Positions 56,019 to 64,000 of a stretch of DNA of 64,000 bases are shown here, one piece after another. The stretch is from Armatimonadota bacterium (GTDB taxonomy: Bacteria > Armatimonadota > HRBIN16), in the NCBI GenBank assembly GCA_963677485.1, contig OY781964.1:3520001-3584000 (forward strand). The letters are read 5' to 3'. The position numbers were made by a program, and so were the translations under genes. The number at the start of each line of letters is the position of its first letter. Position 1 is the first letter of the stretch. Below the pieces are notes generated by a model that saw only the letters and a list, made by a program, of their open reading frames with translations, made no database searches and was not told where the DNA came from.

Positions 56019-56250
56019 GCGGCTTCTCCAAGCTTAATGCGAATGATGATATCCGGTCTGGTGATGCTATGTATATGAACTGTAACAACAACAGGGCTAT
56101 TTGTCAAAATACCAAAATGCAGTCTCCGGGCAGTCTGAACTCGTGGCTCATCTATTACTGGCGACACCCAACCTCGGTCCGTTACAGGATTATAACAGCT
56201 GCGCGTTGAATACCTATAGCAGTAAAAGCTATTCCACTTTGGAGGCCACT

Positions 56251-58209
56251 ATGAGCGCACCGCCACAGCCACCCTCACATGACACCGCCCAGCCGAAAGT
56301 GCGGCTGGGAGCCATCATACTGGCCTTGTTACTAATCCCGGTCAACAGCTATTGGATTGTGCGCAGCGAGGCGATGGACTACAGCGGCTTCCCAACGATC
56401 ATCTCGCTGTTTTACAACGTCATCTTCAGCATCATGGTCCTGCTGGTATCCAATATGGTTGCCAGGAAAGTGGCCCCAAAGCTGGCCCTGAACCAGTGGG
56501 AGCTGCTGGTGGTCTATGCGATGGTGGCCACCGGCAGCAGCTTTGCGGGGCATGACTACCTGCAGATGTTGGTGCCCAGTCTGGCGCATCACACGGTGTT
56601 TGGTACCTCGTTTAATCACTGGCATGAGATGGTGTCCTCCAATCTACCCGACTGGATGGCCATCAACCACGACAGCGAGGCCGTGCGCGCATTCGAACGC
56701 GGGCACTCTACGCTCTACCGCTGGGATCACATCAAGATATGGCTGGTGCCGATGGGCACTTGGGGCATCTTTCTGATGTGTACCGCGATGGCCACGCTGA
56801 GTATCTGCGTGCTGCTGCGTCGGCAGTGGATAGAGAATGAGAAACTCAGCTTCCCGATAGTGCAGATCCCGTTGTTGATCACAGAAGAGGGTGGGGCTGG
56901 GCCGATTTTCAAAAGCAAGCTGTTTTGGATCGGATTTGCGATTGCAGCCTACCTGGATATTCATAACGGCCTGGCGGCTTTGGTTCCTACCATACCGGCT
57001 ATCATGGTCAAGCAAAAAGACATCGGCACCTGGGTCACGTTCAATGCGCCTTGGAATGCGATCGGGCCGACCAATATCAGCTTCTACCCGTTCGCCATTG
57101 GGTTGAGCTATTTCATGCCCACAAACCTGGCATTTTCAAGCTGGTTCTTTTTCTGGGTTCGTAAGCTTCAGCAGGTGGCCTGCAGTTCGCTGGGTTGGAG
57201 CGGTCTGGACGCGAATATGCCGTATGTGAAAGAACAGTCATTTGGTGCCCTGATGGTGATTGTCATCTTTGCGCTATGGATGAGCCGGGGGCATCTGAGC
57301 ACACTGTGGAAGATGGCCTGGAGCGGCGCGGGTAGACAGGACAGCGAGGGGCGGGAGTACCGTGGCGCGTTGGTCATGTTGGGCGCCAGTCTGCTGGGCA
57401 TGGTGCTGTTTCTGGCCGTTGGCGGGATGAGCTGGTGGGTGGCTGTGTTGTATGTGACGCTGTATATTCTCTTATGCACCTCCATCGGACGGATCAGGGC
57501 GGAACTGGGTGCCCCTGCGCACGAATTCGGCAGCATGGGCTCGTCACACATGATGGTCTACAGCCTGGGCAGCACGCTGCTGGGTCCGCATAACCTGACC
57601 ATACTTGGGATTCTATGGTTCCAGAACCGAATGTACCGCGGACTGTTGATGCCCCAACAGGTGGAGTGTTTGAAGGCTGCACACCATGTTGGAATGAAGC
57701 CCCGTTATATGGTGGGGGTGCTGGCTGCAGCGGCCTTCGTGGGCATCCTGGCGGGATACTGGGCATTACTGCATCACAGCTACGCCCGCATATTGCCGGC
57801 GTATATTCATCCCGGCGCACCCGGCAGCGCGTTCGCCGCGGAGTACCTGATCATCTTGAATAGCTGGATGGGAGCCCCTATTGAGCCGAAGGTGGCCAAC
57901 ATGACGGCGATAGGCGTGGGAGCCGCCATCACCCTCTTACTGACTAAGCTGAGTATGATTTGGCATGGAAACCCCTTCCACCCGGCAGGATATGCGCTGG
58001 GCATGGCTTTTGGTTTGGATTACATCTGGTGCCCCATCATGATTAGTTGGGCGCTGAAGAGCTTCATACTGCGCATTTACGGGTTGAAAGGCTATCGCTG
58101 GGCGATGCCGTTCTTTGTGGGCCTGGTACTTGGTGAGTTTGCGGTAGGCGGGTTGTGGAGCTGTATCCGTGGGCTAAGCGGTATCCCAACTTACTCGTTC
58201 TACCTGTAG
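56251..58209 (+). CDS. Polytopic membrane protein, DUF6785/DUF6784-like (putative transporter)
   Basis: Many TM segments; LRRQWIENEKLSFP, RIRAELG, PFHPAGY, PFFVGLVLGE; start moved to ATG 56251 behind GGAGG. Confidence 0.75.
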   Translation: MSAPPQPPSHDTAQPKVRLGAIILALLLIPVNSYWIVRSEAMDYSGFPTIISLFYNVIFSIMVLLVSNMVARKVAPKLALNQWELLVVYAMVATGSSFAGHDYLQMLVPSLAHHTVFGTSFNHWHEMVSSNLPDWMAINHDSEAVRAFERGHSTLYRWDHIKIWLVPMGTWGIFLMCTAMATLSICVLLRRQWIENEKLSFPIVQIPLLITEEGGAGPIFKSKLFWIGFAIAAYLDIHNGLAALVPTIPAIMVKQKDIGTWVTFNAPWNAIGPTNISFYPFAIGLSYFMPTNLAFSSWFFFWVRKLQQVACSSLGWSGLDANMPYVKEQSFGALMVIVIFALWMSRGHLSTLWKMAWSGAGRQDSEGREYRGALVMLGASLLGMVLFLAVGGMSWWVAVLYVTLYILLCTSIGRIRAELGAPAHEFGSMGSSHMMVYSLGSTLLGPHNLTILGILWFQNRMYRGLLMPQQVECLKAAHHVGMKPRYMVGVLAAAAFVGILAGYWALLHHSYARILPAYIHPGAPGSAFAAEYLIILNSWMGAPIEPKVANMTAIGVGAAITLLLTKLSMIWHGNPFHPAGYALGMAFGLDYIWCPIMISWALKSFILRIYGLKGYRWAMPFFVGLVLGEFAVGGLWSCIRGLSGIPTYSFYL

Positions 58210-58959: not shown

Positions 58960-59415
58960 GCTCGTGCTGGCACGGTAGCCTATGGTGTAACTTACGCGTC
59001 ACATTGAGGTGACCGATGGTATGCGAATGGCTGTCCGCCTTTATTGCAGCCACATATTGCCTATGTCCGGGGCGGTCTGTGCGTAGGCTAATGGCTACAG
59101 AAGGCTCAAGACCGCGCCGGTCTGGCGGATAGCCCTGAAAGATCCGTGTCAGGAACAAGCAACCGCCCGTGAAGGTACGGCAACCAGTATTGTAACGGAT
59201 ACGGTCGTAGGTGCGTCCCTTGTCGGCGCCCTACTCGATTGTTTATTCGATAGTAATTGTTTAGGGCGCCCACAAGGGACGCCCCTACGACCTGCTACAT
59301 AAAACGCCGGCGCGGTTTATAGACAGTAGCCACCGCAAGCGTACTGACAGACCGCTCCGGATAGTGCCAACCAAGTTACTTGCCAGCACATGCCCGTGCT
59401 GGCACGGCAACCCTT
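58960..59415. repeat. Composite palindromic repeat block X (modules A, B1, B2 plus a GTAG REP doublet at 59207-59288)
   Basis: Homologous in inverted orientation to 62004-62230. Confidence 0.8.
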
Positions 59416-60592: not shown

Positions 60593-61573
60593 TTATTTTT
60601 TGACGGGTTTCTTAGCGGGTTTGACAGCCTTCTTCGCAGGGGCTTTTGCTTTGGCAGGGGCCTTTGCAGGAGCGGCCTTCACAACGGGCTTTGCAGCGGG
60701 CTTTGCGGCTTCCATTTCGGTAGCTGTGACGATGCCGCTAAAGGCCATCGAGAGCTTGGCATTGGTGTCTTCACCACGAAGATCACCGGTGACAGTGATG
60801 TCCGTGTTTAGGTCTAAACTGGAATCAATCGTCATACCAGTGGCCAAGTCGACATTACTTGTGCTGTTGCCAGTGATGGTACCTGTCAGGTCCAGGCCTG
60901 CGGGCATGTTGGCGGGAACCAGACCAGATAGGCTGCGGATATCGATGTTGAACTTAGATGCGATGCGTGCGATCTTCTTACCGCCCATCTCATCTACCGA
61001 TTCAAGCTTGTTGGTGGCGACGATCTTGCTGCTGGTGGTGTTGGGTACATTGATGGCGGCTTCCCAACTGTCGCCTACCTTAACGGCCTGTTCAGGATAA
61101 GCCGACACGCCACTCTGGCCCATCAGGCTGTTCATAAATCCCTGGACGTTACCGTTCGGCATCAATCGAGTGATACTTTCCATGCCGGAGGCTTGGATGG
61201 GTACACCGAGCTTGTTCACCTTGAGCAGCATCGAGATATTCTGTGCAGGCGGTGTGCTGACGGGAGATCCGTTGGCAGTGATCTGCAAGCCTTCAAAAAT
61301 CAGTTTAATCTGTGTATTACCGTCAGCATCTACGCTTGCTATGTTCTGCCGCATTGACATTGACATCTGCATATTGAAGGGCATCGGTTGAGTGCTTTGA
61401 GCCGTTAAGATGGTGCCTTGCCCATCTATCACAGACCGAACTTTATAGGTAACTCCTACCTTAGGCGTCATACGCAGTAGGTAGCCTTCTGTGGCATCCT
61501 GGGCACATACAGGGGCTGCTAACATCGCACCTGCGACGGCCAGCATCAATACCCGTGATACGGAAAGTTTCAT
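60593..61573 (-). CDS. Paralog of 59508-60515 with Lys/Pro/Ala-rich C-tail
   Basis: Signal peptide (VCA-Q); YPEQAVKVGDSW; KIARIASK; DLATG; tail KPAAKPVVKAAPAKAPAK.. Confidence 0.7.
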   Translation of the reverse strand: MKLSVSRVLMLAVAGAMLAAPVCAQDATEGYLLRMTPKVGVTYKVRSVIDGQGTILTAQSTQPMPFNMQMSMSMRQNIASVDADGNTQIKLIFEGLQITANGSPVSTPPAQNISMLLKVNKLGVPIQASGMESITRLMPNGNVQGFMNSLMGQSGVSAYPEQAVKVGDSWEAAINVPNTTSSKIVATNKLESVDEMGGKKIARIASKFNIDIRSLSGLVPANMPAGLDLTGTITGNSTSNVDLATGMTIDSSLDLNTDITVTGDLRGEDTNAKLSMAFSGIVTATEMEAAKPAAKPVVKAAPAKAPAKAKAPAKKAVKPAKKPVKK

Positions 61574-61717
61574 GAGGAAGCACCTCTCAATGTGTAGTTT
61601 CGCTTAATTGTACCCCAGTTTACTGTTAAGGTGGTGAACATGGTAACGAAAATGGAAAATGATGAAGTAGAGGCTAGAAAAATCACATAAAACCGCCATT
61701 TCGCATGATGCATCAAC

Positions 61718-61846
61718 AAAAAAGGACCCGGGTGTAAACACCCGGGTCGTACCCAGCGGAGTTCACCGTGGGTCGCGTAGTCATCCGCTTTCGCGGAGCT
61801 ACAACCTGTTTCTGTATCATCCACTTGTAAGTGACATTACAGACTA
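61718..61846 (-). ncRNA. Structured RNA / attenuator candidate, copy 1
   Basis: GAAA-capped hairpin, second hairpin, terminator GACCCGGGT..ACCCGGGTC-CTTTTTT; 73/78 identical to copy 2 with compensatory changes. Confidence 0.7.
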
Positions 61847-61851
61847 TCTTT

Positions 61852-61880
61852 ATAATACCCTCCCATGCAGAATATGTCCA
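61852..61880 (-). promoter_or_regulatory. Candidate sigma70 promoter for RNA copy 1
   Basis: Minus strand TGGACA-17 nt-TATTAT. Confidence 0.5.
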
Positions 61881-62003
61881 CAGTGTGGTGATGAATTTGA
61901 TGGAGCTCATATTATTACAGTAGAAATACTGGATATTGGCATCAACACAGAGCTCTCGCGGCAGGGTGATTTACTGTTCTCTGGCATTAATAAAAGCTTG
62001 AAA

Positions 62004-62230
62004 ATAACTTGGTTGGTTATGTCCGGGGCGGTCTGGCGGTACACTTGAAATGGCCGCTGTCTATAGACCGCGCCGGTCTTGTTCCCGACATATATCATTC
62101 GTGGCTATCCGCCAGACCGGCGCGGTCTCGAGCTTTCTGCATACGCTAGCGTACGCACAGACCGCCCCGGACTTTGCCAATTGAAGGGTACGAATCCGTT
62201 ACACTATGGGCTGCCGTGCCATCACGGGCA
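62004..62230. repeat. Composite palindromic repeat block Y (inverted homolog of block X)
   Basis: B2 at 62021-62079, inverted B1 at 62078-62172, inverted A at ~62195-62230. Confidence 0.8.
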
Positions 62231-62280
62231 GTTTCTTGTAATGGTAGATCCATGCAACGGAGCAGATGCGGTGGTTCTAC

Positions 62281-63075
62281 CTATCCAGTCAAGCCGGAGA
62301 TCAGCCGATACAGTTCAATCCGGTCAGGGTCGATCAGTTCCAGACCATATGCATCCTTGAAGGCCTGATCATACCGATCGGTGTGCAGGTTGTAGTTGAG
62401 TGTCCAGATGCCCCAGAACAGGTCGTAGTGCCTGTCGCCAACACCGCCATACCCCACATCGATGAATGCGTTGAACTGCCAGTTATGAATGATGATATTG
62501 GGCAGGCAGTAGTCGCCATGAATCACCACATTATCGCTGTGGTTGTGAAACAGGTGGTGGCAGGATTCGACCGCGTCATCAGCGGGCATCTGCAGTATCT
62601 GCTGGTCGCCTGATGGGAATGGCTGCGGTGCGTCAGGAGCATATAGGCAGTCAATATCCTGCATCATCTGTGCTGTGCGGTTGGGGAATGGGCAGCCGGT
62701 TGTTGGAAGCTCATGAAGGAGTCGAAGCTGATGGCCGAATAACACCGCTAGCCGCTCAGGGTGTGCGAGGTGATCGGGGTGGATGCCGTCTTCGCCATCT
62801 GCCGCTTGAGTTAAAAGATAGTCATACCCATTCTCAGTTTCGAAGCTCAGCATTTCAGGTGCCATCTGGTGGCTGTGCAGAAACTGCATCATGGCAGCCT
62901 CCGGTTGTAGCGTTTCGGCAGGTGCCTGTTTGAGATAGCATGGTATATTTCCATCCGCGAACCAAACCCGGGCATCAGTGCTGCAATGGCTGTCATACCA
63001 CACTGCATCTTTCACGATGCCGCGAATCGTGTGTGGTAGATCAGGCAGCGGCCTGGTGATGAGTGTGCGTTGCAT
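62281..63075 (-). CDS. Aminoglycoside 3'-phosphotransferase-like kinase (APH family)
   Basis: YLK, HGDYCLPNII, FIDVG..GVGDRHYDL; start moved to ATG 63075 behind GGAGG. Confidence 0.85.
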   Translation of the reverse strand: MQRTLITRPLPDLPHTIRGIVKDAVWYDSHCSTDARVWFADGNIPCYLKQAPAETLQPEAAMMQFLHSHQMAPEMLSFETENGYDYLLTQAADGEDGIHPDHLAHPERLAVLFGHQLRLLHELPTTGCPFPNRTAQMMQDIDCLYAPDAPQPFPSGDQQILQMPADDAVESCHHLFHNHSDNVVIHGDYCLPNIIIHNWQFNAFIDVGYGGVGDRHYDLFWGIWTLNYNLHTDRYDQAFKDAYGLELIDPDRIELYRLISGLTG

Positions 63076-63091
63076 AGATGACTGCCTCCAG

Positions 63092-63225
63092 AACAAGAAA
63101 TGACCCGGGTAAAAAATCTACCCGGGTCGAACCCAGCGGTGTTTACCGTGGGTCGCGTAGTCATCCACTTTCGTGGAGCTACAACCTGTTTCTGTATCTA
63201 CCACCAAAGGCTATAGACCAGACTG
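63092..63225 (-). ncRNA. Structured RNA / attenuator candidate, copy 2, in the 5' leader of the APH-like gene
   Basis: Same fold as copy 1; terminator hairpin followed by ATTTCTTGTTCT then the GGAGG RBS. Confidence 0.7.
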
Positions 63226-63230
63226 TTTTA

Positions 63231-63260
63231 AATATACCCTCTACCGTAAAGAGAATGCAA
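63231..63260 (-). promoter_or_regulatory. Candidate sigma70 promoter for RNA copy 2/APH
   Basis: Minus strand TTGCAT-18 nt-TATATT, same position relative to the RNA as in copy 1. Confidence 0.5.
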
Positions 63261-63399
63261 TCCGAATCTACAGCAGATGTTAAAACTAGCAAAAATACGG
63301 ATATGCTCGCCGTATAGTAGGGGATACCCAGTCGCAGTATACTAATCTGAGGGGAACTATCCTTCAAATCGCCAGTTCAGAATGTGTGAGGTCGATTCG

Positions 63400-64000
63400 A
63401 TGAAAATGCTCATTTTAATGATGTTTGTGGTCGGTATGGCCGTGTTCCAAGCCAGGCCCGTATACGCTGCCAACCCGATACTGCGAGGCTTGGGAGTGTG
63501 TGACCCGCATATCCGCATCTACAACAATCGAGCATGGTTATACGCTACCCATGACGCCTCGGTCAACAACACGGGCTTCACAATGCATGACTGGTGGGTG
63601 TGGTCCTCAACTGACCTTGTGAACTGGACACATGAGAGCACACTACGGCCGGAGGATACTTACCACAAGGCTCCATCGACGACCTGCTGGGCTACCGACA
63701 GTTTGAAATCTCACGGCAAATACTACTTCTATTTCTCAATGGGTGTCACTGATGTGGGTGTGGTCGTTGGCGATACACCCAAAGGGCCATGGCGTGACCC
63801 ATTGGGCAAGCCGCTTCTACCATCCACATTGACGCCAACCGAAGAGCGTGATCCAGGCATCATCATGGATGATGATGGGAACGTCTACATCGTGTTTGGG
63901 GTGTGGGACTTCTATATTGCACGATTGAACAAGGATATGATCTCATTGGCGGAGGCACCCCGGAAGATCGAACTCGATCAAAAAGATGGTCCATATGGTC
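63400..64000 (+). CDS. Secreted glycoside hydrolase family 43 (5' part; runs off window, absent from ORF track)
   Basis: My translation: MKMLILMMF..YAANPILRGLGVCDPHIRIYNNRAWLYATHD..WSSTDLVNW..CWATD..GKYYFYF..PKGPWRDPLGKPL..RDPGIIMDDDG. Confidence 0.88.
   Translation, partial: MKMLILMMFVVGMAVFQARPVYAANPILRGLGVCDPHIRIYNNRAWLYATHDASVNNTGFTMHDWWVWSSTDLVNWTHESTLRPEDTYHKAPSTTCWATDSLKSHGKYYFYFSMGVTDVGVVVGDTPKGPWRDPLGKPLLPSTLTPTEERDPGIIMDDDGNVYIVFGVWDFYIARLNKDMISLAEAPRKIELDQKDGPYG

Follow-up and report, generated by a model that had tools for sequence, protein, structure and literature searches.

Two near-identical copies of a structured RNA element occur on the minus strand of the window, i.e. the 64,000-nucleotide stretch of DNA that was analysed (Armatimonadota bacterium, GenBank assembly GCA_963677485.1, contig OY781964.1, positions 3,520,001 to 3,584,000): copy 2 lies directly upstream of an APH(3')-like kinase gene, and copy 1 lies between this gene and two DUF6263 genes. 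With a probability of about 0.5, the element is best explained as a genus-specific RNA unit of ~135 nucleotides that runs from promoter to terminator, derives from the 3' end of groEL, and gates the kinase gene through a leaky terminator. Each unit would then have a sigma-70-like promoter followed by a variable 5' hairpin, a single-stranded A-rich linker, a hairpin P1 (with a GNRA-type loop), a hairpin P2 and a terminator, and would descend from a partial duplication of the neighbouring groEL 3' end. Copy 2, the kinase leader with an eroded U-tract, would be an attenuator that leaks and is probably not switched; its terminator would set the expression level of the kinase, and termination would release a small, stable, structured RNA. 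Copy 1 most likely ends transcription of the kinase gene, insulates the DUF6263 genes and yields the same small RNA.

The repeat is a real, conserved and structured module at the RNA level. Positions 61741-61818 and 63121-63198 differ at five of 78 nucleotides (at 61750, 61760, 61764, 61787 and 61794), just as the first-pass annotation, made from the sequence alone, had counted, and repeat finding delimits an 85-nucleotide direct repeat (61740-61824 and 63120-63204, family D12) with 92% identity. BLAST against the complete genome (5.22 Mb, single contig) returned these two as the only close copies, the next match having an E-value of 0.34. When folded as the minus strand, copy 1 reaches -52.9 kcal/mol and copy 2 -52.0 kcal/mol (z -5.2 and -4.95, respectively), and none of 200 dinucleotide shuffles of either copy folded as well. 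Both are built in the same order: the promoter-like site comes first, then a variable 5' hairpin and the A-rich linker, followed by P1 (11 pairs, one internal loop, GAAA as the loop), P2 (8 pairs and a single bulge) and an intrinsic terminator, which is a GC-rich stem of 10-12 pairs followed by a T-tract. The claimed compensatory change in P1, from G-C to A-U (UCCGC/GCGGA versus UCCAC/GUGGA), is indeed present, and so are the terminator stems that extend differently between the copies with their pairing kept. The 5' hairpin closed by UCUG/CAGA was found in this genome as described, but one closing pair is lost in a sister species.

That sister species of the same genus (hereafter G001) holds the only further copy that BLAST detected over 61 related genomes, again directly 5' of the kinase ortholog, and an exact P1-P2 pattern scan of genome contigs found the sister-species chromosome only. 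Copy 1 is 90.8% identical to this leader over 141 nucleotides, and both genomes share the succession of a divergent GH43 gene, the module, the kinase gene and DUF6263. Copy 1, copy 2 and the G001 copy (the three leader copies, in the consensus of which the A-rich linker is fully conserved) were the only sequences used for a first covariance model, R1. Applied to 18 genomes of the family, R1 found three extra, more divergent members (56.4, 53.4 and 41.8 bits; per-genome E-values from 1.7e-12 to 1.5e-8), one in each of three genomes of the genus, the third belonging to another species (hereafter G002). All three begin at the stop codon of groEL, i.e. they are groEL's 3' untranslated region (UTR) plus its terminator, and the family of six thus comprises three groEL 3' ends, two modules in front of the kinase gene and one standalone module (copy 1). 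The groEL-type member of the genome itself (G000:C1:3586264-3586410) lies ~2.3 kb past the end of the window on the same strand as the repeats, the groEL gene (atlas score 0.98 for this identity; PF00118) being located ~3 kb upstream of the repeats on that strand, just outside the window. MAFFT aligned all six members colinearly, and plain BLAST, with matches that begin at TGTAG/TGTAA (the stop of groEL) and continue across the terminator, gave 67/97, 63/91 and 62/88 identical positions.

The third species adds a second line of evidence for this origin. Its kinase ortholog lies ~2 kb downstream of groEL and is preceded by a pseudo-copy of the species' own groEL coding tail (72/88 identical, E 3e-20; L026 2341-2428, minus strand of G002:C8), which corresponds to approximately the last 64 nucleotides of the groEL coding sequence and lies ~1.9 kb downstream from where the real groEL ends. 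The pseudo-copy is followed by a GC hairpin of 12 pairs, which lies right next to the ribosome-binding site (RBS), lacks a T-tract and was not flagged by the terminator scan. Given this pseudo-copy together with the groEL-type members, the leader appears to be a captured duplicate of the groEL 3' end, and in the genus the DNA that precedes the kinase gene would be a partial duplicate of that end (stop-codon region, 3' UTR and terminator). The pseudo-copy also suggests that duplication or gene conversion has recurred in the genus at groEL's 3' end; one ancient event followed by gene conversion in G002 and repeated duplications are both compatible with the sequences. A second groEL was considered as the source of the duplicate and rejected, the genome having a single groEL. 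Within the block lying between groEL's 3' UTR and the duplicate, there is, between groEL and GH43 and past the window end, a gene for a 314-amino-acid pentapeptide-repeat protein (L022 34-978; G000:C1:3584797-3585741), which matches the NCBIfam Alr5209/HetL-like family and, more weakly, Qnr-like ones.

Outside the genus the family was not encountered. All three genomes of the genus carry it, and they are the only ones matched among the 18 family or order genomes searched with R1; with a second model built from all six sequences (R2) only these three exceeded 40 bits among 151 sampled genomes of the phylum, none of the other 148 scoring above 36.7 bits. R2 matches outside the genus scored 22-31 bits, and the six loci inspected are GC-rich terminators with unrelated upstream hairpins. 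JGI metagenomes were scanned with a degenerate pattern of 21 bases compatible with every member, and no match emerged. Elsewhere in the own genome, R2 scored 36.7 bits at a terminator that follows a 3D-domain gene and lacks P2. This terminator, after a 3D-domain/DUF348 gene (G000:C1:1989015-1989036; L040 1200-1273), has a 22-nucleotide stem-loop identical to that of the groEL terminator, a stem motif found at three genome sites only.

The module has been retained far better than its surroundings. Between the own genome (G000) and G001, the kinase genes share 212 of 264 amino acids and 626 of 792 nucleotides, with 43 of 93 four-fold degenerate sites identical (near saturation), and the intergenic DNA that flanks the module is unalignable. 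The module core, on the other hand, is identical at 80/85 positions between copy 1 and G001, at 73/88 between copy 2 and G001 and at 77/88 between the two copies, and the 5' part of copy 1 matches that of G001 at 31/39. Since the core is 83-94% identical while the four-fold sites of the kinase gene are only 46% identical, these comparisons indicate that the module is under purifying selection. Copy 1 was also found joined to DUF6263 on bioreactor and digester metagenome contigs at ~93% identity. On one of these, with 21 of 23 differences listed, 14 fall in the 141-nucleotide spacer between element and DUF6263 and seven in the 134-nucleotide element. Among the latter, GCAA in place of GAAA in the P1 loop, a change in the P2 loop and a terminator G-C to G-U leave the fold intact, although single calls in these low-depth contigs of four runs may be errors.

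As for transcription, both copies had been described as lying just downstream of similarly placed promoter candidates. This was upheld for copy 1, the promoter-like site of which is the only one that a consensus scan found in 61400-63500; the copy 2 site stays below the scan threshold. A GC-rich stem-loop followed by a U-tract, as in intrinsic terminators, is present in all three leader copies: copy 1 has 10 pairs (8 GC) and then CTTTTTTGTT, copy 2 has 12 pairs and then ATTTCTTGTT, and the G001 copy has 10 pairs and then CTTTAGATTC. The U-tract amounts to U6 in the standalone copy 1 and to U5-U7 after groEL, and is interrupted where the module meets the RBS of the kinase gene (copy 2 and G001), which follows 12-20 nucleotides past the terminator. 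In copy 2 the stem ends at 63102, and the 12 nucleotides between it and the GGAGG at 63085-63089 agree with the earlier estimate. There is no space for a promoter between this terminator and the RBS, so the kinase would have to be expressed by read-through. In the nascent RNA the 5' hairpin, P1 and P2 form while the 5' strand of the terminator stays free, for which reason termination is the predicted default. Copy 1 ends ~142 nucleotides before the DUF6263 ATG (61573), close to the distance first given, but it does not hold up as a DUF6263 leader: a -10-like box with the same flanks stands downstream of it in all three species, and because DUF6263 keeps this box of its own, copy 1 would not be required in that role.

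Several observations weigh against the proposed read-through unit. The covariation in its favour (94% of the cells of the six-member alignment are paired, and both-side changes occur in 11 of 38 pairs versus 5.4 in shuffles, with 0/500 reaching 11, and versus 0-2 in slid controls) comes from six sequences in two tight groups, aligned by fitting to the model, and is to be read without the two 5' helices, which in three alignment rows lie in groEL coding sequence. The promoter-like site of the sister species, too, is below the threshold of the consensus scan, which only copy 1 passes. The resemblance of the leader 5' hairpin to the groEL coding tail of G000 and G001 is suggested by the MAFFT and covariance-model alignments and was not found by BLAST. 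Furthermore, P1 and P2 have decayed in the copy upstream of the kinase gene in G002, because of which this domain would not seem to be generally needed for expression of the kinase. Finally, a leaky terminator alone does not account for the near invariance of P1, P2 and the linker, in sequence and not only in pairing, between species that are saturated at neutral sites; such conservation points to a partner of the P1/P2 domain, either protein or RNA. As it is sequence that is kept here and not just pairing, both a small RNA (sRNA) and a factor-dependent attenuator stay in contention.

Such an attenuator, in which a ligand, an antibiotic or a protein acting at P1/P2 would switch the leader terminator and with it the kinase, is unlikely. 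Its position, with the terminator directly before the kinase RBS in two species, would suit it, as would the strong conservation of P1, P2 and linker and the lack of any Rfam family that explains the element. It would also continue the idea of a riboswitch or attenuator in the first-pass annotation, of which the structured and compensatory nature of the element and its place directly 5' of the kinase RBS have stood, but not the switch. The chain of mutually exclusive pairings that had been proposed is not competitive: compared with the best fold that pairs the terminator 5' strand upstream, the terminator fold wins by 11.0, 14.3 and 13.5 kcal/mol in the three leader copies. Its GGUUG:CGACC pairing loses one pair in G001 through an A-to-G change that is uncompensated there, whereas the same substitution is compensated inside the terminator. 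In addition, the unpaired linkers are not conserved between leader type and groEL type, three of the six members are groEL 3' UTRs, i.e. at the 3' end of a gene, which is hard to reconcile with a dedicated 5' cis-regulator, the family was found in one genus only, and the kinase gene of G002 does without P1 and P2. A ligand-sensing riboswitch is thus unlikely. A more elaborate scenario, in which a recently born riboregulator arose when the groEL 3' UTR was duplicated, gained a promoter, became a conditional kinase leader and was duplicated again into a stand-alone sRNA, with a factor that binds P1/P2 (shared with the groEL 3' UTR) coupling the kinase to stress or antibiotic exposure, is considered equally unlikely.

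It is somewhat less improbable, though still unlikely, that the element is, in line with the sRNA alternative of the first-pass annotation, an independent trans-acting sRNA gene with the linker or the P2 loop as seed, its position before the kinase gene being incidental or secondary. The duplicated unit spans exactly the stretch from promoter-like site to terminator end, and it is the standalone copy 1 that has the best promoter match, a perfect terminator and the highest conservation with the sister species in both core and 5' part, next to a DUF6263 gene with its own -10 box; sequence-level conservation of linker and loop is typical of sRNAs as well. However, the eroded U-tracts and the nearby kinase RBS in copy 2 and G001 make it seem that read-through has been selected, and the 24-nucleotide linker, paired against 7058 crudely defined start regions, reached at best -23.8 kcal/mol, versus -20.9 to -26.2 kcal/mol for ten shuffled seeds. 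The modules could also simply be inert scars of local duplication or insertion, in which rearrangements have directly repeated groEL's 3' end and which have inherited nothing but a terminator. This would fit with three related modules that lie on one strand in a span of 5 kb and border species-variable gene blocks, with the insertion next to copy 1 of a repeat resembling a miniature inverted-repeat transposable element (MITE), and with the decaying copy in G002, but an unselected scar would have decayed, in conflict with the compensatory stem changes and with a core that outlasts four-fold sites and flanks, which makes this reading very unlikely. Least credible, and hardly to be expected, is control of terminator formation by translation of an upstream open reading frame that starts at an AUG in the 3' strand of P1 and extends across P2 and the terminator. 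All three leader copies keep this frame open (23, 50 and 21 codons), and one site that varies (G, A or U) is the third position of a codon; nevertheless, no Shine-Dalgarno sequence precedes the AUG, where the kinase and DUF6263 genes have clear ones, P1 buries this AUG, no two copies agree in length and C-terminus, and most other substitutions alter the amino acid. One further sense frame and the antisense frame are likewise open on reading the sequence, without consistent starts or stops.

The first-pass annotation had matched the element to none of the c-di-GMP, T-box, SAM, fluoride, guanidine or yybP motifs, and the search of known families agrees. Rfam 15 (4227 models) gave no match at gathering thresholds over the whole window. 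Under relaxed conditions (2 kb, E-values up to 10) the best match was RF02837 anti-hemB (26.5 bits versus a gathering threshold of 49.5, E 0.0016), all others having E-values above 1. The anti-hemB RNA (Burkholderia RNA 7) also consists of two hairpins and then a GC-rich terminator, but the score reflects this generic hairpin and terminator shape and was obtained for copy 1 only. Integron attC sites carry the core sites RYYYAAC and GTTRRRY at the two ends of one imperfect hairpin. An attC reading was rejected, no suitably spaced pair of core sites being present on either strand of the three leader copies, and the leader fold, with its three separate hairpins, is unlike that single hairpin. A small protein encoded antisense was rejected as well: the frame is open in the three copies, but copy 1 lacks a start codon, and three of the five differences between the copies would alter the amino acid as read from the sequence.

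Attenuators upstream of antibiotic-resistance genes, i.e. leaders with an intrinsic terminator, have been found by Term-seq. The present element resembles them in its promoter-like site, structured leader and GC hairpin with U-tract before the RBS, so that read-through would be needed, and differs in that a leader peptide with a Shine-Dalgarno sequence and a competitive antiterminator were not found and that the element is the paralog of a 3' UTR. In this last respect it recalls sRNAs derived from 3' UTRs, of which the adiA 3' UTR-derived sRNA of Salmonella is a reported example (bioRxiv 10.1101/2025.06.06.658255): the members of the groEL type are 3' UTRs with structure, closing with the terminator of the gene, and the leader type has the same architecture, with the difference that in the present case a duplication of the 3' end took place and a promoter of its own was apparently acquired. 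A structured leader 5' of an aminoglycoside-modifying-enzyme-type gene is also known from the aac/aad cassettes of integrons, where an 'aminoglycoside riboswitch' is disputed (PMC7588185 for, PMC9410878 against); it is set apart by gene family, genomic setting and architecture, the points compared. A narrow literature search found no description of a groEL 3' UTR element of this type. In kind, the element would be an intrinsic-terminator leader or sRNA unit, restricted to one genus and outside the Rfam families, with the duplicated groEL 3' UTR origin as its distinctive feature. If correct, it would be a clear natural case of the birth of a 5' leader or sRNA gene from a duplicated, conserved and reused 3' UTR plus terminator. 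It also draws attention to an APH(3')-like kinase gene from the environment, the expression of which would have to cross a terminator, which could be tested in a cultured organism, although the practical reach is small, as the element, whose role is putative, was found in one genus only.

Positions of the RNA modules and adjacent features in the window, with the basis for each
Feature	Positions	Strand	Basis and details
Promoter-like site, copy 2	63231-63260	-	TTGCAT, 18-nucleotide spacer, TATATT; sequence reading and alignment with the copy 1 and sister sites; in a 150-nucleotide gap shared with the divergent GH43 gene
Copy 2 RNA module, 5' leader of the APH(3')-like gene	63089-63228	-	R1 147.9 and R2 112.1 bits; fold; terminator scan
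Copy 2, 5' hairpin	~63191-63222	-	
Copy 2, P1	63156-63183	-	
Copy 2, P2	63131-63153	-	
Copy 2, terminator stem	63102-63128	-	
Copy 2, eroded U-tract	63092-63101	-	AUUUCUUGUU
APH(3')-like phosphotransferase gene	62281-63075	-	264 amino acids; ATG at 63075, GGAGG at 63085-63089
MITE-like dispersed repeat between the APH gene and copy 1, outside the RNA module	61996-62239	.	Genome-wide matches
Promoter-like site, copy 1	61852-61880	-	TGGACA, 17-nucleotide spacer, TATTAT; 10/12 consensus positions
Copy 1 RNA module, 3' of the APH gene and 5' of the DUF6263 promoter	61715-61848	-	R1 165.8 and R2 111.6 bits; fold; terminator scan
Copy 1, 5' hairpin	61811-61843	-	Followed by the linker
Copy 1, P1	61776-61803	-	GAAA loop
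Copy 1, P2	61751-61773	-	
Copy 1, terminator stem	61725-61748	-	
Copy 1, perfect U6 tract	61718-61723	-	
DUF6263 -10-like box TACAAT	61607-61612	-	34 nucleotides before the ATG; sequence reading, not a tool score
DUF6263 gene downstream of copy 1, the first of a pair; both N-termini signal-peptide-like	60593-61573	-	PF19777, E 1.2e-9

The kinase gene matches Pfam PF01636 (E 3.3e-27; 96.2 bits, above the cut-off of 23.2), and it scores 146 bits (E 1.4e-42) with the NCBIfam APH(3') model NF033068, below the cut-off of 205 bits. Its product is on this basis a kinase of the APH family, closest to APH(3'), with an aminoglycoside as putative substrate. The two other genomes of the genus carry orthologs with 80% (G001) and 55% (G002) identity.

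The MITE-like repeat is ~175-245 nucleotides long and partly self-complementary, and has 83 matches in the genome, dozens of which are 80-92% identical over 170-250 nucleotides. A second copy (59056-59387) is inverted relative to the one beside copy 1, so that the pair flanks copy 1 and the two DUF6263 genes, and the repeat is absent from the syntenic gap of G001. This can be read as arrival of copy 1 together with, or close in time to, the MITE-like insertion.

Further along the window, a 702-amino-acid membrane protein with DUF6785 and DUF6784 (E 8.7e-137) is encoded upstream of the DUF6263 pair (56101-58209). Positions 1-20400 are occupied by a long array of genes built from 117-nucleotide (39-amino-acid) tandem repeats (families D1-D11), which end in a conserved C-terminal module of ~300 nucleotides with a D-x-D-G-D-G / NLFDY motif. 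Seven to eight of these C-terminal modules are spaced ~2.2 kb apart, and the array looks like a set of paralogous, repeat-rich secreted proteins.

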